NCBI GenBank assembly: GCA_002502095.1
Contig: DAPJ01000021.1
Location: forward strand, 29,069-93,068
Length of the DNA stretch: 64,000 nucleotides
Direction of reading: 5' to 3'
Source: Euryarchaeota archaeon UBA62
GTDB taxonomy: Archaea; Thermoplasmatota; Poseidoniia; Poseidoniales; Thalassarchaeaceae
In this document: in pieces, positions 4,694 to 58,366 of the stretch
Numbering within the stretch: position 1 is the first letter of the stretch
Layout: each line of letters starts with the position of its first letter
Translations under genes and position numbers: made by a program
The notes under the pieces: generated by a model
What the model saw: only the letters and a program-made list of their open reading frames with translations
Told to the model about the DNA's origin: nothing
Database searches by the model: none

Positions 4694-4943
4694 ACACCTT
4701 AGGTCCGCAGATACGGACTTTCTATTCTTCAGTCAAACAATTTGTCCATACTGTACTAGGGCCGCCCGAACCCTGGAAGCTAACAATCTAACATATACCG
4801 AGATTAATTTGGATCACTATGAGGGCCTTAGACAGAAGATCATCATCGAGACGGGCCATAGAACAGTTCCTGTGGTTTTTGACTTGAGGCAGGATTCGCC
4901 GATATTTGTCGGGGGATCCGATCATCTGATTGACTATCTTTGA
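4677..4943 (+). CDS. Glutaredoxin-like protein (CPYC active site)
   Basis: 88 aa. CPYC motif early in the protein, then TVPVVF and GGSDHL, the classical glutaredoxin layout. Start overlaps the end of the upstream fusion gene. Confidence 0.75.
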   Translation: MSSLLEHLRSADTDFLFFSQTICPYCTRAARTLEANNLTYTEINLDHYEGLRQKIIIETGHRTVPVVFDLRQDSPIFVGGSDHLIDYL

Positions 4944-5524
4944 GAATTTTCTGCAATCTCAGAGACCTGCTCACGCATCTCCTCAAATTGATTGAGATTG
5001 ACCATATGTCCCTTTTCATGTTCCAATCTCGTTACGGGCCAACCAGATTCCTCAAAGATTTCGATATGTTCTATACCCACATCAAGTGGGACCAAATGAT
5101 CGCGTTCTCCATGCATCCATATCACTGGCCGGGGCTTCAGGAATGGAAGTACCCCTCTCAATTCATCAGGCCTGGCCGTTTTTGTAGCAATCAATACTAG
5201 TCCGACTATAGAACTACTCGCCTTAGTCTCTAGCAAGGCCGATGCCATCGCACCCCCCTGGGAGAAACCACCAACAATTATCGGGCCATCTGGTATTATC
5301 TCCAAGATTCCTGATAATGAGTCTTCCATTTGGGATATCGACTCGTCCTCAGAGACGCCCCCCTCAAAAAGCCACCATGCAAAACCTCCTCTCGTAGGAT
5401 GCCTAATCTTAGCCTGAGGGCATAAAGTCGACCATCCATCAGGGGTTAGTCCCCGTGCGAGCTCTTCCATCTTTTCAGATGTCCCAGTCATTCCATGCAT
5501 CATTATGAGCGTACCCTTGCTCAT
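4934..5524 (-). CDS. Alpha/beta hydrolase, phospholipase/carboxylesterase family
   Basis: 196 aa. Nucleophile elbow GFSQGG. Late conserved Asp and His (ERDHLVP, EKGHMV), typical of the small carboxylesterase family. Confidence 0.65.
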   Translation of the reverse strand: MSKGTLIMMHGMTGTSEKMEELARGLTPDGWSTLCPQAKIRHPTRGGFAWWLFEGGVSEDESISQMEDSLSGILEIIPDGPIIVGGFSQGGAMASALLETKASSSIVGLVLIATKTARPDELRGVLPFLKPRPVIWMHGERDHLVPLDVGIEHIEIFEESGWPVTRLEHEKGHMVNLNQFEEMREQVSEIAENSQR

Positions 5525-5532
5525 CTAATCCC

Positions 5533-6501
5533 TCACAGATTCCATTGGAAAACCAATGCTCCGGCAACCTTGAGGTGGATGTATGAAGATTGGCCACGAA
5601 CCGTTACAGTAAGCGAGTATTCTCCAGAGTTGGAGGGTATAGTGCCTATGGCACCCTTTTCTGTCGCTCCTGACCCCCATGCACGAGTAAGGGGAGAAGC
5701 TCCAGCATGATCCTTCATTGTTAGGGAACCGGAAGATGCCCCATTAGATGCAATTTCTACATCAAGATACCAAACTAAGGTATCCCAATCTCCTTCTGTT
5801 GGGTGCCCATCGTCGAAAAATGAGTCATATATTTCCTGGTCATTCTCCTCATACAGCCGATCAATCAAGTCTCTAGCTCTATAGAAGAAAACGTCTCCTT
5901 GATAGTTTGATCTGGCGACATTCAAATCCATACGTAACTGGTTCCTTCCCTCCGAGTCTTCCCAAACTAGCCTTTCTAGGAAACCATCACTTCCGCTGAA
6001 TGTATATTGCAATTCATGACCTTCAGAAGATTCAGCACTTACTCTGGCATTTCCATTGTTTATGGAAACAGTAGTAGCACTCCACTCTTGGCCGAATAGC
6101 GTGAATGACCACTCATCACCGATGACCCATGGAAATGAGAATACTTGTTGTGGTATCCCATTTTCGTATACTGACAATCCATCAATTGTCATTCGGCCCA
6201 GAAATGGATTATGGTTGATTACCGCGTGTCTTTGAGCTTCTCTCTCAGAGGAAATACCGACTTGATAATCTCCTGATTCGTTATCAATTTCTGCTACAAC
6301 CAACCTAGCGCTATCTTCTCCGAATTGTGGTGTGATGAATGTGTACAGCCAATTATTTCCAACTTCCCATTCTGGGAGAATCATATCATCATCCACAGAT
6401 TCTCCCGATTGCACAGAATCGCCTGTCTCAATGCAACCCGAGACAATACATATCGTCATCAAACAGGCCATACCAATTGCAGACCTGCCACTCATGCCCA
6501 T
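5533..6501 (-). CDS. Hypothetical secreted lipoprotein
   Basis: N-terminal hydrophobic segment ending in a lipobox-like VSGC. No recognised catalytic motif. Lies 8 nt upstream of the esterase on the same strand. Confidence 0.45.
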   Translation of the reverse strand: MGMSGRSAIGMACLMTICIVSGCIETGDSVQSGESVDDDMILPEWEVGNNWLYTFITPQFGEDSARLVVAEIDNESGDYQVGISSEREAQRHAVINHNPFLGRMTIDGLSVYENGIPQQVFSFPWVIGDEWSFTLFGQEWSATTVSINNGNARVSAESSEGHELQYTFSGSDGFLERLVWEDSEGRNQLRMDLNVARSNYQGDVFFYRARDLIDRLYEENDQEIYDSFFDDGHPTEGDWDTLVWYLDVEIASNGASSGSLTMKDHAGASPLTRAWGSGATEKGAIGTIPSNSGEYSLTVTVRGQSSYIHLKVAGALVFQWNL

Positions 6502-51163: not shown

Positions 51164-52501
51164 TTACTTCTCTCTGAGAGATAAGAGTGCAGTTTCTACA
51201 GCCGCCATTGTAATCCTCTCGCCACTTTCTCTAACCATGGTAGCAACCTTCTCGACCTCATGATCTTCCGCACCCGCGGCGGCCACCATATTCATCAGAT
51301 GTAATTTCATATGGCCAGCCTGAATTCCGACTGTGGCGAGAGCCCTCAAGGCACCAAGGTTCTGTGCCAATCCCGCCGCCGCCATTACCTTGGCCAAATC
51401 ATTAGCAGTACGCAGACCCAATAATGCAACATTTGCTTGTGCCCCAGGGTGGATTCTAACGGCACCTCCTACTAATCCTACGGCCATTGGAATCTCAATT
51501 GATCCGACTAGATTCCCATCAGAGTCTTTTTCCCAGTGAGTCATTGAGGAATATTCTCTCCCAAAGGAGGCATACGAGTGAGCTCCTGACTCTATGGCCC
51601 TCCAGTCCTGCCCACATGCTATAGCAATTGGTGAAATCGCGTTCATTATTCCCTTATTGTGAGTAGTCGCCCTGAATGGATCGGCAGCGGCAAAGTGATA
51701 CGCCTGAATAACGCCATCAATAACATTGGAGCCATTCTCTGAATCTTTACCGTCATCAGACATCTCTTCAGGGGTGAATATTGCACTTACCTTGGCTAGC
51801 CTATGTACTGCTAGATTACTGATTATACGGAGTATTACAGTTCCAGAACTCAACTCTTCAATTTTTTGAGCTATTGTCTCTGCCATGGTATTGACGGCAT
51901 TGGCTCCCATTGCATCCCTACAATCAACTAGGATATGTACGATAACCATCGGTCCAGATTCTGTCTCTATGACTCGAACTTCTACATCCCTGCATCCTCC
52001 TCCAAATTTTACAAGAATCGGATCAACCTCGTTGCAAGCATCAATCAACTCGTTTTTAGATGAGAGGATGGCATCTTTGGCTAAGTATGGATCCTCACAT
52101 CCAACAACCTGAATTTGACCTATCATTACGGGAGCATCATTATCTGAAACAAAACCCCCATTGGAATGGCATCTTTTAGCCATATTGGAAGCGGCCGCTA
52201 CAACACTCGCTTCTTCCACAACGAATGGTATCAGATAATGCTCGCCATCAATGATGAAGTTTGTAGCCACTCCAATCGGTAACGAGTATGTACCAATTAC
52301 ATTCTCTATCATCCTATCTGCAACTTCTTCTGAAAGCTCCCCATTAGATGCCCATGCCTCTACCATATCATCCTCTAGTCCTGCAATCTCCGAGAGCAAG
52401 TCCCTCCTCTCTGAGACAGATAGTTTGTAGAATCCTTTCAATCGACTGCTATCCACTGGCATGTTATCGTACCTAGTCGGCGAAAACACCCTTCTGTACA
52501 T
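51164..52501 (-). CDS. hmgA: HMG-CoA reductase, class II type
   Basis: ENVIGTYSLPIGVATNFIIDGEHYLIPFVVEEASVVAAASNMAK closely parallels the class II (Pseudomonas mevalonii-type) block as I recall it. DAMGANAVNTM also present. Its stop abuts the citrate synthase stop with no gap. Confidence 0.9.
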   Translation of the reverse strand: MYRRVFSPTRYDNMPVDSSRLKGFYKLSVSERRDLLSEIAGLEDDMVEAWASNGELSEEVADRMIENVIGTYSLPIGVATNFIIDGEHYLIPFVVEEASVVAAASNMAKRCHSNGGFVSDNDAPVMIGQIQVVGCEDPYLAKDAILSSKNELIDACNEVDPILVKFGGGCRDVEVRVIETESGPMVIVHILVDCRDAMGANAVNTMAETIAQKIEELSSGTVILRIISNLAVHRLAKVSAIFTPEEMSDDGKDSENGSNVIDGVIQAYHFAAADPFRATTHNKGIMNAISPIAIACGQDWRAIESGAHSYASFGREYSSMTHWEKDSDGNLVGSIEIPMAVGLVGGAVRIHPGAQANVALLGLRTANDLAKVMAAAGLAQNLGALRALATVGIQAGHMKLHLMNMVAAAGAEDHEVEKVATMVRESGERITMAAVETALLSLREK

Positions 52502-52572
52502 TTCGCTTGAATATCTCTCATAATATCACTTAGGTGACCACATAATCTGATCCAGATACAATATTTTCATCA

Positions 52573-52749
52573 CATTAAAGCGTTAATTATTCTATTAACG
52601 CTTTGTTAACGCATAATTAAAGCGTTAGTAAAACGTTAATATTACTAATATACATTCGACTTACTAATCTAAACTATTGAGAATTTTATATCTAAAAATG
52701 CGTAAATATACGTTAATAATAACTATCTTATCTGTTAGTAAACGTTAAT
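52573..52749. repeat. Cluster of CGTTAAT-core repeats in an AT-rich intergenic region
   Basis: Read directly. CGTTAAT at about 52580, 52633, 52710, 52742. ATTAACG at about 52593. Imperfect copies at about 52605 (TTAACGC) and 52622 (CGTTAG). 12-bp direct repeat ATTAAAGCGTTA at 52573 and 52615. Direct repeat GTTAGTAAA(A)CGTTAAT at 52623 and 52733. Confidence 0.85.
52576..52603. promoter_or_regulatory. Perfect 11-bp inverted repeat AAAGCGTTAAT-N6-ATTAACGCTTT (candidate dimeric protein-binding site)
   Basis: Read directly from the sequence. The arms are exact reverse complements. Function is inferred only. Confidence 0.6.
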
Positions 52750-52779
52750 GTTATGTACTCCTGACTATTCACCAACATC

Positions 52780-54669
52780 GTGGCAGGTGTTCCATCCGAG
52801 AATCTTGGTTTGCCCTTGTTGAGAGGCAACCCCTTTGATCTCAGGCCAATCGAGAGTGGAAGGGCCGAGTACCTAGTCGGAAGGGATAGGCTAATCGCTT
52901 CTTGGAGAGAGCATATTATTTCACAATCACCAAGGATGTTACTACTTGTTGGCGAGAGGGGTTCCGGGCGTTCATCAGTTGTGAGAACTTTAGCTTCACA
53001 GACGAGAAGAAGTTTTGTCGGTCAATATTGGCCTACCAGCGATCCCGTGAATGCAATAATTCATGAATTAGCAATTCATTTTTGCGGGTTTAGTTCATCG
53101 GGCTCAAATCAGAAAATGATAGATGATTTAGTCTCCAATCTGGAAGAGAGTTCTGGATCCCTGCCCGTGATATCTCTTGATTATCCATCAAATATAGAAA
53201 TCTCCATGGTATTGAATTCAATATCCCCCATTCTTCAAAGACTGAGGGCGCTAGTCATCGTAGTACTCACTCCCTCTCAATTGTCTTCTATTGATGAAGA
53301 GACTCTCGAGCTTTATGACAGGCCAGAATATACAACACATCTATCTAAAGAGCAAATCCAAGAGTTATCTAACAGACTCGTATCAAGAAAGGCTAGAGAG
53401 AAATGGATTATTGATGATATTTTACTATCAAGGATTTATGAATCTACCTCTGGAAACCCTAGAGATGTTATTCGACTTTTGAGGGACCTAATCGATGAGA
53501 GGAGGGATGTTGGTGCACATGGGGCACTAGAGAGACTAATGCGTTGGAAAATTATCAATGACTCCAGTGATGTATATGAAAAGGATGGAGAAAATCAAAT
53601 TTTATTTCCGGATGAATCTCAAGGTCATATCACTGAAGAGGATAATCAATTATCCGTAGATGATCCTCCCGAAAACCGAGATTTCAAATTACAATCAACT
53701 TATTCTGATGGTGATGAATCAATCCAAGACATTACTGAATACATCGAAGATCAAGGAGACAACCTCCATAGTGATGAGCTTGAAGAATACCCCTTCAATT
53801 TCCAAACAGAAACAGGTGAAAGTCAAGTAAATATCGAGGATTTCTCTGAAGATCCAGATGACCTATGGGAGGGGGACTTAGATACCGATGTAGAAGAAAT
53901 ACCCGTAGAAAGAAATACCGAGCAAGGGACATTGGATGATTTTGTCTACATTCAACCAGGTACGGAGCCCCCAATGTTTCATTCAGGAAGTGGTTTCAAC
54001 GGCCTCGCCCAGAGATCAAAATTAGCCCAAAGTCAACAGCCCAACGAAAAAGAAGATACTCCACTCATAGAGTCAGTATCTGAGATTTCACATCTCTGGG
54101 AAGGGGATAAGATAGATATTGAAAGCAATCAACCGGAAAAAAATATTCCAATCATTAGTAATATCGATCCAGAGTGGGAAATAGAAGATCCACAACTCCC
54201 AGAAAAAGAGACCTCCAGTGTCATTTCGACTGATTCCGCCCACTGGTCAGTGGAGCCATCAATGGCCTCTTCATTGCCCGTTTTCGAAGATTCAGAAACT
54301 GAGATTATTGATACTCCATTTGGTATCGAAGACGCTCCCGTTCAATCAATTGATATTATTGAAAATAAATCTGAAAATCCTCGAAGGGAAAACTTCCGTC
54401 CGACTACTTCATGGGAGCCTGACAATCCTTTTGATGAGGAGAGGAGTATATATCTAAATGAAGCTGAAATGTTAGTCATTTCAATGGCTTCAAAGAGAGA
54501 GATTTCTCCCTCAGATGCAGAACTCCAGGCCAGGCTCGAGGTTGGAAGACCCCGCCTCTCTCAGATATACAATGGACTCCACAAGTCCGGATACCTTTCT
54601 GTCAGGAAGCAAGGAAGAAAGAGACTATTCAAAATCACAGAAGCTGCACAGAAATTAGTGGAGGCATAA
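52780..54669 (+). CDS. Divergent Orc1/Cdc6-like P-loop protein with degenerate Walker motifs, long acidic linker and C-terminal winged helix
   Basis: The N-terminus has the same layout as the canonical Cdc6 in this window (P..LVGRD, about 20 aa, then a P-loop): YLVGRDRLIASW...LLLVGERGSGRSSVVRTL. The Walker A Lys position is Arg. The candidate Walker B VISLDY lacks Glu. About 300 aa of D/E-rich low-complexity follows. The C-terminus LSQIYNGLHKSGYLSVRKQGRKRLFKIT is wHTH-like. GTG start per the ORF track. Confidence 0.5.
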   Translation: MAGVPSENLGLPLLRGNPFDLRPIESGRAEYLVGRDRLIASWREHIISQSPRMLLLVGERGSGRSSVVRTLASQTRRSFVGQYWPTSDPVNAIIHELAIHFCGFSSSGSNQKMIDDLVSNLEESSGSLPVISLDYPSNIEISMVLNSISPILQRLRALVIVVLTPSQLSSIDEETLELYDRPEYTTHLSKEQIQELSNRLVSRKAREKWIIDDILLSRIYESTSGNPRDVIRLLRDLIDERRDVGAHGALERLMRWKIINDSSDVYEKDGENQILFPDESQGHITEEDNQLSVDDPPENRDFKLQSTYSDGDESIQDITEYIEDQGDNLHSDELEEYPFNFQTETGESQVNIEDFSEDPDDLWEGDLDTDVEEIPVERNTEQGTLDDFVYIQPGTEPPMFHSGSGFNGLAQRSKLAQSQQPNEKEDTPLIESVSEISHLWEGDKIDIESNQPEKNIPIISNIDPEWEIEDPQLPEKETSSVISTDSAHWSVEPSMASSLPVFEDSETEIIDTPFGIEDAPVQSIDIIENKSENPRRENFRPTTSWEPDNPFDEERSIYLNEAEMLVISMASKREISPSDAELQARLEVGRPRLSQIYNGLHKSGYLSVRKQGRKRLFKITEAAQKLVEA

Positions 54670-54670
54670 T

Positions 54671-54964
54671 ATGGATGAAAACGTATTAATTACCGAAGAA
54701 AGAGTGAAGAAATATATCTCAATCACCCTTCAAGCAAGGAAGAAGGCCACACCAAATAATCTTAGCAAGGCGGACTTGGAAAGATTGGACTCTATGATGA
54801 GAATGTGTGATGACTACTACTCAGATTCAAAATACTTCCTTGAGAAAGGGGATTTGGTCCGGGCATTCGGAGCAATAAACTACTCGCATGCATGGATCGA
54901 CGCGGCAGTAAAAATCGGCTTAATGGATGGGCATGGAGATGATGTTCTTTTCACTCTTCCTTAA
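54671..54964 (+). CDS. Small archaeal protein, DUF357-like
   Basis: 97 aa helical protein. The pattern (YYSDSKYFLEKGDLVRAFGAINYSHAWIDA) resembles the archaeal DUF357 family as I recall it. Starts 2 nt after the upstream stop. Confidence 0.4.
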   Translation: MDENVLITEERVKKYISITLQARKKATPNNLSKADLERLDSMMRMCDDYYSDSKYFLEKGDLVRAFGAINYSHAWIDAAVKIGLMDGHGDDVLFTLP

Positions 54965-57157: not shown

Positions 57158-58366
57158 CTACCGCTTCGTGAACTCTTCCTCAATCCTACTTCCTATTGTT
57201 GCGGGTGCGGTATTGGTCATTGTAATGTATGTAGTTCTACCCCTACCAACTGTAGTATTAGTTGACCGGGCATCCAACAAACCTTCCTTTTCCAGTGCCT
57301 TGAGATGCTTCCAGAATGTCGTATAGCTCCGTGGTTTTACTCCAAATTCCTCACATACCACTTCATATAGCTTCCTAGCATCTCCACTTGATATCTCCTC
57401 TTCCTTACGTAATCTTCTACATATCCCGAGAAGTACAAGTTTCTGATGGGCACTAAGGGAGTCAACCTGGCTCGGCTCCACAGAAGCAGACCTTATGGTA
57501 CTCGGCATTACATCATTCAACGCAACCTCTCCTCTTCCATCCATCTCCGCCCTCCTTACCGCTGCCTCAAGAAGCTCGATAGCTAGCCTGGCATCGCCAG
57601 TACCCTCAGCAAATCTTCCTATCTTCTCGAGAATATCATCGCTCACTGATCCGGATCTACAAGATGCCTCATATCTCTGTTTGGAAATTCCAATCAGGCC
57701 ATCGTACCCATAGGGCTCCAGCTTCAGTACGTTACTCTCTCCAAGTCTCGAGATTATCGCCGGCTCCATCATACCCATCAGTGACAAGTCCTGACTAACT
57801 AGAATCAGAGAGATAGTTCCTTGCCCGCCCTGTCCTTCATCGATTCGCAGTAGTTTGTAGATTAGATCGCTATTATCTCTCCTAATGAGGATATCAACCT
57901 CGTCTAATACCAATATCATATGGAGCCCCCTAGACCGAATATTCCTCCTTATCGACTGAATAATTTCCCCAGAGCTAAACCCCCTCTCAGGATGTCGGGA
58001 GTCCAAAGACAGTGCAATCTGTTGTAAGACCTGATTCGTAGAGGGATGATTACGACAATTAACATGAGACAGAGTCATCTTCCTAACTCCATCCAACTCT
58101 CTGATTACATCCTCTCCAAATCTTCTAGTTAGTACGGTTTTTCCCGTTCCAACATGACCTATGACCACTGCACGACCACTCACTCCCTCGCTACCTATTC
58201 CCATGAACATCGAGGCTAAAAGGCCTAGTTCCTTGTCCCTGCCTACAAGATTTGGAGGAGTCCAATCGAATGAAAGTGGCCCCCTGTCGACGAGTATCTT
58301 GCCAGCACCGATATTGTCAAGGTAGTCTGTCATCAGACCACACGCGCTAACATCGTTATTAGACAT
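57158..58366 (-). CDS. cdc6: Orc1/Cdc6 replication initiator
   Basis: LVGRDKEL, Walker A GHVGTGKT, Walker B ILVLDEVD, sensor regions, and a C-terminal winged helix (LKALEKEGLLDARSTNTTVGRGRTTYI). Confidence 0.92.
   Translation of the reverse strand: MSNNDVSACGLMTDYLDNIGAGKILVDRGPLSFDWTPPNLVGRDKELGLLASMFMGIGSEGVSGRAVVIGHVGTGKTVLTRRFGEDVIRELDGVRKMTLSHVNCRNHPSTNQVLQQIALSLDSRHPERGFSSGEIIQSIRRNIRSRGLHMILVLDEVDILIRRDNSDLIYKLLRIDEGQGGQGTISLILVSQDLSLMGMMEPAIISRLGESNVLKLEPYGYDGLIGISKQRYEASCRSGSVSDDILEKIGRFAEGTGDARLAIELLEAAVRRAEMDGRGEVALNDVMPSTIRSASVEPSQVDSLSAHQKLVLLGICRRLRKEEEISSGDARKLYEVVCEEFGVKPRSYTTFWKHLKALEKEGLLDARSTNTTVGRGRTTYITMTNTAPATIGSRIEEEFTKR

Follow-up and report, generated by a model that had tools for sequence, protein, structure and literature searches.

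A gene for an ORC-related AAA+/winged-helix protein and its conserved upstream box array in marine Group II archaea

Marine Group II archaea (Poseidoniales) are among the most abundant planktonic archaea. To our knowledge none has been cultured, and we know of no experimental work on the control of their replication or transcription. We analysed a stretch of 64,000 nt from one of them, Euryarchaeota archaeon UBA62 (assembly GCA_002502095.1, contig DAPJ01000021.1, positions 29,069 to 93,068), hereafter the window. It encodes a protein of 629 aa that joins an AAA+ domain, an acidic linker and a C-terminal winged helix-turn-helix (wHTH). The gap between its gene and the divergent gene for HMG-CoA reductase (hmgA) carries an array of short boxes, and gene and array form a conserved pair across the Poseidoniales and at more distant loci. 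We regard the locus as a deeply conserved candidate protein-DNA pair, with one protein, one box of 12-13 nt and a fixed layout of eight boxes.

Gene family and domain architecture

The gene and the parts of its product are as follows.

52780-54669, plus strand: coding sequence of the 629-aa protein, with a GTG start and the stop codon at 54667-54669 (listing of open reading frames and homologues)
52780-52881, plus strand: N-terminal tail (aa 1-34), with the invariant motif LP-x-LRGNPF-x-x-RP-I/L-E
52882-53547, plus strand: AAA+ base and lid (aa 35-256; AF2 model, Foldseek and hhalign)
52951-52977, plus strand: P-loop GERGSGRSS (aa 58-66), with Arg64 in the position of the Walker A Lys
aa 225-237, plus strand: sensor-2-like motif GNPRDVIRLLRDL, within the AAA+ domain
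53548-54414, plus strand: acidic, fast-evolving linker (aa 257-545, 289 aa; composition and conservation)
54415-54666, plus strand: ArsR/SmtB-type wHTH (aa 546-629), with recognition helix GRPRLSQIYN and wing SVRKQGRKRLF

The GTG at 52780 is the first usable start past an in-frame TGA (52762-52764), which excludes the upstream ATG annotated as the start in some relatives. The conserved peptide begins at residue 9. Among 5.8e9 proteins searched, we found 455 homologues that are full-length down to 47% identity and come nearly all from marine metagenomes. The profile of the N-terminal domain matched just 115 of 1.84e9 cluster representatives (E<=1e-3), and the family is therefore narrow. The gene is encoded on 111 contigs of species genomes, of which 80 were retained. 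All 80 belong to a Poseidoniales metagenome-assembled genome (MAG) or single-cell genome, or to a MAG whose only label is Thermoplasmatota, Methanobacteriota or Euryarchaeota. The carriers include Poseidoniaceae-like as well as Thalassarchaeaceae genomes. More distant metagenomic representatives (21-35% identity, 500-1000 aa) keep the three-part architecture on contigs with a neighbourhood like that of the window gene. As far as sampled, the family is restricted to Poseidoniales and unassigned archaeal relatives, and every marine Group II archaeon that we examined has it.

The initial annotation had recognised no described family in this architecture, and the databases agree: Pfam, NCBIfam and PADLOC give no family model, and none of their curated thresholds is reached except, marginally, that of AAA_22 (27.2 against a cutoff of 27). 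Relatives are annotated in their sources as 'hypothetical', 'transcriptional regulator' or 'ArsR family regulator', and a full-text literature search found nothing on this protein family or on Group II origins. The family is undescribed, with neither a curated model nor a paper found, and is a derived variant of an ORC/ExeA-type AAA+ plus wHTH stock. An origin in defence or mobile elements was rejected (no match in PADLOC, no relative on viral contigs).

For the N-terminal domain, PDB searches with the single sequence and with the profile returned only P-loop-level noise. Hence, its homology had to be established by structure and by profile-profile comparison. The AlphaFold model of the domain (pLDDT 75.7, pTM 0.68) has a five-stranded AAA+ base and a helical lid, with two helices (aa 89-102 and 110-123) between the strands at 78-81 and 130-134, i.e. 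between beta2 and beta3. The preceding tail has a pLDDT below 50 in the monomer model, and its residues P12, P18 and F19 are invariant in 49 family representatives. The top Foldseek match of the domain is Drosophila Cdc6; yeast Orc4, human ORC1 and S. solfataricus Orc1-3 come next. Scores like those of Cdc6/ORC (E 1e-7 to 1e-5, TM 0.5-0.6) are also reached by MuB, TnsC, plant NLRs and RFC. Because these scores are similar, the modelled fold places the domain in the initiator/STAND/loader neighbourhood without choosing among these. As to STAND NTPases, the nSTAND1 match (1.5e-4) is below its cutoff, there are no repeats, the wHTH lies 289 aa from the AAA+ domain, and the NLR matches are no better than Cdc6.

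The relationship to Orc1/Cdc6 is clearer in the profiles. A profile of 48 N-domain sequences matched the Poseidoniales Cdc6 over 211 columns (hhalign 96.2%, E 2e-9). The match spans LVGRD, Walker A, the two-helix insert, which aligns with the initiator-specific motif (ISM) segment of Cdc6, and the sensor-2 motif. As the initial annotation had noticed, the N-terminal layout mirrors that of the canonical Cdc6 encoded nearby (57158-58366): LVGRD (aa 32-36) is followed after about 21 aa by G58-E-R-G-S-G-R64-S-S66, and hhalign pairs this segment with NLVGRD...GHVGTGKTV. The protein shares with Orc1/Cdc6 the order of AAA+ base, lid and winged helix, the LVGRD before the P-loop, the two-helix beta2-beta3 insert, a GD-x-R-like sensor-2 motif and short repeats adjoining the gene. 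It differs in its Walker A Arg, in the lack of a Walker B Glu and of an Arg finger, in the 289-aa acidic linker inserted between lid and winged helix, and in an ArsR-type winged helix instead of Cdc6_C; its boxes are unrelated to origin recognition box (ORB) elements. The description 'Orc1/Cdc6-like' is therefore right for the AAA+ domain, which is homologous, but not as a family assignment: Pfam finds neither Cdc6_C nor Cdc6_lid on the protein, and TIGR02928 is not among its NCBIfam matches.

The closest relatives outside the family are short archaeal proteins with an AAA_22 (ExeA/TIGR03015-like) domain and an ArsR/MarR-type wHTH (for example P0223, P0225, P0230, P0231 and P0233). They match the N-domain profile with hhalign 99.6% and E 9e-24, are themselves homologous to Cdc6 over their full length (hhalign 98%) and match the ExeA-like NCBIfam model TIGR03015 at 2e-22. 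Like the 629-aa protein, they have an NPF lead, the same AAA+ subtype, a C-terminal ArsR-like winged helix and a chromosomal archaeal gene. They differ in their length of 359-397 aa, in having no acidic linker and in a canonical GKT/S P-loop. Their context also differs, with genes divergent from LigT and near PCNA, TopoVI and RadA, and the upstream spacer of P0223 has only 34 nt, which leaves no room for an array. Since hhalign scores are much better with this group than with Cdc6, the profiles indicate that the 629-aa protein is a derived offshoot of an ORC/ExeA-type AAA+ plus wHTH stock and not a strict Orc1/Cdc6 paralogue. By its sequence scores it is a relative of the ExeA/AAA_22 ATPases rather than a member, as TIGR03015 gives 16.5 bits against a cutoff of 324.5 and the P-loop is non-canonical. 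The genes of P0223 and P0225 (L089:2114-3193 and L090:1908-3053) are both divergent from a LigT/2H-phosphoesterase gene, with genes for PCNA, TopoVI-A, RadA, an RPA-like protein and a histone around them, in two unrelated archaeal assemblies. From this context, proteins of the P0223/P0225 type look like a second uncharacterised conserved ORC-like family.

The active site is degenerate. The residue in the place of the Walker A Lys is Arg in 76 of the 81 scorable loci and Lys in the other 5; among the 49 family representatives the counts are 42 and 7, with a P-loop of the form G-x-x-G-x-G-[RK]-[ST]-S. The Lys-type P-loops are scattered over Poseidoniales lineages. D134 (in LPVISLDYP) is invariant and pairs in hhalign with the Asp of LDEVD in Cdc6, and Y135 takes the place of the catalytic Glu. 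At this position Tyr was found in 72 loci, otherwise Phe, Val, His or Ser, and never Glu. The Arg finger of Cdc6 (ISRLG) pairs with Leu178, and the family alignment has no invariant Arg within aa 168-185. Both the Arg in Walker A and the missing Walker B Glu had been pointed out in the initial annotation, which called the domain probably ATPase-dead. ATP hydrolysis is indeed probably negligible, given the degenerate catalytic residues, but 'dead' is too strong for binding. Because the basic P-loop residue and the Mg-binding Asp are strictly retained, and Lys and Arg have been exchanged repeatedly, it is more likely that the site still binds a nucleotide or a phosphate ligand, without hydrolysis, than that it is dead.

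The linker is 26% D/E and 5% K/R, with a net charge of -60, and its mean conservation is 0.44 compared with about 0.8 in the flanking domains. The acidic, low-complexity middle of some 300 aa described initially is thus real, but not featureless: it holds conserved short islands (SEDPDDLW, EQGTLDDFVYIQPGTEPPMF and STDSAHWSVEPS), of which GxFxGLxxRxR (R412 invariant) and LW (W489) are family-wide. A PIP box (QGTLDDFV, aa 382-389, fitting Qxx[L]xxF[V]) is present in the window lineage and in one other of the 49 representatives. Being restricted to these lineages, it was dropped as a family feature.

The last 84 aa form a winged helix, as predicted at the outset for the C-terminal 70 aa or so. 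The AF2 model (pLDDT 94.5) has three helices, a recognition helix, a beta-hairpin wing and a terminal helix. A profile of 35 C-domain sequences retrieved BigR (1.7e-5), HlyU (1.1e-4) and ArsR/SqrR (about 5e-4) from the PDB, and gave E 0.73 with the winged helix of Cdc6 (2qby_A). In Foldseek, HlyU was the best match (3.8e-4, TM 0.68), and HlyU, SqrR, SmtB, CzrA and CadC dominate the matches (TM 0.64-0.70). Pfam gives only DUF6293_C, at 0.023. Profiles and model together identify the domain as an ArsR/SmtB-type, i.e. repressor-type, winged helix and not a Cdc6_C. R590, R592, S594 and Q595 of the recognition helix are invariant in the 49 representatives, down to 21% identity. The fold, the L-S-Q/H-L signature of the recognition helix and sites overlapping the gene's own (putative) promoter are shared with ArsR/SmtB autorepressors such as BigR, HlyU, SmtB and CzrA. 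Those repressors are small dimers (about 100 aa) that stand alone and have metal or redox sensor sites and one 12-2-12 operator, whereas here the domain ends a protein of 629 aa, has no Cys and is accompanied by 7-8 boxes. The NCBIfam BigR model scores 21.4 bits on the 629-aa protein, against a cutoff of 155.

The upstream box array

The gap upstream of the gene (52502-52779, 278 nt) has a GC content of 0.27, the lowest of any gap in the window, and holds seven clear AWAAWGCGTTAAY boxes and degenerate copies. Its elements are listed below; those past cluster A were read from an alignment of intergenic regions (24 diverse ones for the spacer).

52577-52640, both strands: box cluster A, five AWAAWGCGTTAAY boxes in the order → ← ← → →, conserved across Poseidoniales (52577-52587, plus; 52594-52604, minus; 52605-52615, minus; 52619-52629, plus; 52630-52640, plus)
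52641-52695, no strand: AT-rich spacer with an AAAMCG-N4-ACTRAG-like element
52696-52706, plus strand: proximal variant box AATGCGTAAAT
52707-52718, plus strand: proximal box ATATACGTTAAT
52732-52738, plus strand: degenerate box CTGTTAG
52739-52749, plus strand: last box TAAACGTTAAT
52745-52755, plus strand: putative TATA-like element TTAATGTTATG some 30 nt ahead of the GTG, into which the last box extends

The array stands out from its surroundings. RCGTTAAY occurs nine times in the window (2.25 expected; reached in none of 100 shuffles), and six of these copies fall in 52580-52749, with no other cluster in the window. In 75 Poseidoniales loci, the density of CGTTAA is 22.7/kb in the gap and 0.147/kb in the other 840 kb, a 155-fold difference, and none of the loci has a second cluster. 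All 76 measurable Poseidoniales regions (the 75 loci and the window) carry the array upstream of the gene, with 4-10 CGTTAA each, although the GC content of the gap ranges from 0.23 to 0.49. The geometry is conserved as well. The order of the boxes in cluster A and their start-to-start spacing of about 14, 11, 16-17 and 11 nt recur across Poseidoniales, and the order-wide layout is a five-box cluster, a spacer of about 70 nt, one box, two degenerate boxes 11 nt apart and ATTATG. The proximal boxes have the order-wide consensus AAGCGTNAGTAWGCGTGAAYATTATGTAC. The AAAMCG-N4-ACTRAG of the spacer is conserved separately and is not a GCGTTAA box; it could be the site of a second factor or a promoter element.

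The last box and ATTATG lie at a conserved distance of 25-30 nt before the start codon, and there is no Shine-Dalgarno sequence upstream of the GTG at 52780. Because a TATA-like sequence and its distance to the start are conserved and a Shine-Dalgarno sequence is absent, we infer that ATTATG is the putative B recognition element (BRE)/TATA of a leaderless mRNA.

The association of array and gene extends beyond the Poseidoniales. At eight distant loci (genomic GC content 41-63%), the gene is preceded at 100-200 nt by GCGTTAA-like arrays. Neither the box core CGTTAA nor the R-x-R-L-S-Q of the recognition helix has changed across this divergence. In L084 and L085, an AhpC gene lies between hmgA and the gene: the array is found in the spacer between AhpC and the gene, and the spacer between hmgA and AhpC has none. 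Since the array stays with the gene when AhpC displaces hmgA, it belongs to the gene of the 629-aa protein and not to hmgA. The repeats reported beside the gene in the initial annotation are therefore real, and the mapping of phyletic distribution and synteny that it proposed shows that they form a pair with the gene throughout.

Rfam has no match in the intergenic region. The 12-nt direct repeat GTACCTAGTCGG (52469-52480 and 52869-52880) is not conserved in relatives and was discarded as a probable chance match. Its two copies lie 400 nt apart inside the 5' ends of hmgA and of the gene of the 629-aa protein, and the nearest relative (L003) keeps 11 nt of it.

Neighbouring genes

Three neighbours are relevant to what follows.

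51164-52501, minus strand: HMG-CoA reductase gene hmgA, divergent from the gene of the 629-aa protein
54671-54964, plus strand: DUF357 gene (Pfam DUF357, 7.6e-19), one base past the stop codon
57158-58366, minus strand: canonical Orc1/Cdc6 gene (Cdc6_C 1.3e-16, Cdc6_lid, AAA_22; TIGR02928 5e-62)

The divergent hmgA is the most persistent linkage. It was found in all 75 Poseidoniales loci holding both genes and in the distant loci L081, L086 and L088, including L086, where DUF357 is not downstream. In lineages with short spacers, the first box is about 30-45 nt from the hmgA start, which makes co-regulation of hmgA via the array plausible. On the other side, the DUF357-like gene noted initially directly downstream follows in 79 of the 80 loci, the remaining one ending at the contig end, and forms an overlapping operon with the gene in distant lineages. 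Judging by this arrangement, it is probably co-transcribed. The further downstream neighbours, all on the minus strand, are PIN_9, aIF2-gamma, S6e, Orc1/Cdc6 and Dph2, which places the Orc1/Cdc6 gene 2.5 kb downstream of the coding sequence and 4.4 kb from the box array.

The neighbourhood varies in distant lineages. In L083:3590-4624, from a lineage of 63% GC, DUF357 is followed directly by cdc6, with both genes on one strand, and the PIN/aIF2-gamma/S6e block between them is missing. In L084:1-5565 and L081:1-3041, genes for SMC, a protein of 320-422 aa (possibly ScpA, with no Pfam hit) and ScpB are immediately upstream of hmgA. The conserved block of distant lineages then reads SMC, ScpB, hmgA, the gene of the 629-aa protein, DUF357, PIN, aIF2g, S6e, Cdc6 and Dph2. 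In distant lineages, an extra open reading frame of about 346 aa separates the gene from DUF357, and its stop and start codons overlap with those of its neighbours (L081:6640-7686, L082:1932-2972, L083:2092-3129, L087:2445-3476 and L088:3042-4100). It is reduced to 158 aa in L084 (11600-12076) and absent from Poseidoniales. Its product has no Pfam or NCBIfam match. It has a conserved helical part at the C-terminus, and its repeats show a faint, non-significant similarity to PQQ beta-propellers (PDB E 0.05).

A candidate array-binding regulator and its alternatives

We propose, with a probability of roughly 0.5, that the 629-aa protein is a multimerising, non-hydrolysing AAA+/ArsR protein that binds the box array and autoregulates its leaderless operon, and probably also the divergent hmgA. 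The ArsR-type winged helix would recognise the AWAAWGCGTTAAY boxes upstream of its own gene. The AAA+ module would act as a nucleotide-bound, non-hydrolysing multimerisation switch, since the P-loop and the Mg-binding Asp are kept while the catalytic Glu and the Arg finger are lost, and several protomers would fill the 7-8 boxes cooperatively. The box spacing of 11 nt, about one helical turn, would suit such cooperative protomers. As the last box overlaps the putative BRE/TATA, its occupancy is predicted to repress the operon, including DUF357. In most lineages, the distal five-box cluster borders on the putative promoter of the divergent hmgA and probably co-regulates that gene. The acidic linker would tether both modules and may be an autoinhibitory DNA mimic or a region where partners dock.

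Several observations speak for this regulator: the conserved pair and its fixed geometry, the specificity of the boxes, the invariance of both recognition helix and box core, a wHTH of repressor type, a P-loop under selection and a chromosomal gene that falls outside known defence and viral sets. There are also precedents in which an ORC-type or NTP-switch ATPase module drives promoter binding by oligomerisation on multiple short boxes. Orc1-2 of Sulfolobus is reportedly a DNA-damage transcription regulator, and MalT is a STAND/AAA+ transcription factor. Orc1-2 differs in being a canonical, ATPase-competent Orc1/Cdc6, and MalT in combining an NB-ARC-type nucleotide-binding oligomerisation domain with sensor repeats and a LuxR HTH; both are without an acidic linker and without a degenerate catalytic site. 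Should the 629-aa protein be such a regulator, HMG-CoA reductase, with which archaeal membrane-lipid synthesis begins, would have its first candidate controller. The protein would then also be an example from nature of an ORC-type AAA+ module, with Arg replacing the Walker A Lys, that has become an assembly switch working without hydrolysis.

Other points weigh against it. The 629-aa protein is a candidate binder of the boxes, which might be the target of a different factor. An array of seven to eight boxes whose geometry is fixed order-wide far exceeds what simple autoregulation normally needs. The archaeal promoter elements are putative and were placed by eye. The cooperative model is speculative because, with a linker of 289 aa in between, AAA+ multimerisation would no longer be coupled to the geometry of DNA binding. 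Finally, canonical cdc6 is never more than a few kb away from the gene and in L083 follows it directly, and SMC/ScpB lie in the neighbourhood in distant lineages, which hints at a role in chromosome biology rather than in plain gene regulation.

The array might instead be a chromosomal replication origin, or part of one, or a replication-control locus, and the 629-aa protein an ORC-like, non-hydrolysing origin-binding factor, by analogy with iteron/Rep modules or with WhiP/oriC3 of Sulfolobus. The Cdc6 encoded 4.4 kb away would then load MCM. We consider this unlikely. Its strict form, in which the GCGTTAAY array is the Poseidoniales origin, set by the non-hydrolysing ORC-like protein rather than by ORB/Orc1, with Cdc6 recruited via the acidic linker motifs, is a little more doubtful again. 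Were the array an origin, it would represent a non-ORB mode of archaeal origin specification. The homology of the AAA+ domain to Orc1/Cdc6, including the two-helix ISM region, agrees with this, as do the constant proximity of cdc6, which in L083 directly follows the operon, and the SMC/ScpB genes upstream in distant lineages. The intergenic region is also the most AT-rich gap of the window, and iteron origins typically have short boxes spaced by 11 nt next to the gene of the binder; metagenomes also yielded unrelated iteron-like arrays of CGTTAA. Also in favour of an origin at the array, canonical ORB elements, as defined in the literature (PMC4153887), are missing: exact TTCCASTGGAAA was found neither beside cdc6 nor anywhere in 88 loci, and the flanks of the Orc1/Cdc6 gene (71 and 55 nt) have no ORB. 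The 16 loose matches to TTCCAGTGGAAA in the window (at most 2 mismatches) are scattered, with none clustered or beside cdc6, and were rejected as canonical ORBs. A single, unclustered copy of a near-perfect palindrome resembling an ORB core (TTCCATTGGAAA, 5540-5551, one mismatch to TTCCAGTGGAAA) is placed at the 8-nt gap between the minus-strand open reading frames 4934-5524 and 5533-6501.

The structure of the gap fits an origin less well. In GC-rich lineages, the intergenic GC content is 0.48-0.56, the spacer is not AT-rich and there is no AT-rich unwinding element. The whole region of 200-390 nt is filled with conserved footprints and two putative divergent promoters, the boxes beside the spacer are in direct and not inverted orientation, and the winged helix is of repressor type, not Cdc6_C. 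The flanking genes on both sides point toward the array, and the GC skew is positive on the left and negative on the right, the reverse of a usual origin, though weak at the scale of 64 kb. This skew tracks gene orientation, and an origin cannot be located from it at such a scale. The initial annotation had proposed an origin-specifying factor or, alternatively, an autoregulated transcription factor. Beyond the proximity of cdc6 and the array itself, we found no positive evidence for the former. The position of the boxes fits the latter better, though there the sign of regulation is something that we infer.

We find it improbable that the boxes are bound by another protein, for example canonical Cdc6 acting on a non-canonical ORB or some unrelated transcription factor, while the 629-aa protein has another DNA target or a role away from DNA. 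A point in favour is the lack of a recognisable ORB near the canonical Cdc6 gene. Yet the array tracks the 5' end of the gene through rearrangements and very deep divergence, the recognition helix and the box core are both invariant, and the boxes are confined to the array across about 1 Mb of sampled neighbourhood (flanking CGTTAA 0.147/kb, unclustered).

The least probable alternative, by a little, is a centromere-like or chromosome-organising site, where the array would serve in partition or condensin loading, the protein would be an adaptor like those of ParR-parC, TubR-tubC or AspA that recruits partners through linker motifs, and autoregulation would be a by-product: two box clusters flank a promoter-like spacer, as they flank the promoter in R1 parC, AspA is among the winged-helix structural matches (at low rank), the conserved short motifs of the disordered linker suggest partner docking and distant lineages have genes for SMC, possibly ScpA and ScpB directly upstream of hmgA, but the gene has no linked partition NTPase (ParA/ParM/TubZ-like), the window lineage does not have SMC/ScpB adjacent to it, and the support is wholly by analogy.

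Short boxes of this kind also occur away from the family. A scan of metagenomes for GCGTTAA-N4-GCGTTAA gave at least 120 loci; among the matches listed, 3 carry the gene, and all others come from other organisms and are either iteron-like arrays of an unrelated kind or copies of a repeated element. The scan thus carries no information on additional sites in Group II genomes. The repeated element (L122, L123, L142, L150, L162 and L170) has a recurring end of the form GAGCTGTCGAAGCGTTAATTTTTT...TTAACGC...GCGTTAA...TTAACGCGTTATTAACGCAC on unrelated contigs from several metagenomes. It resembles the terminus of a mobile element and is unlinked to the family of the 629-aa protein.

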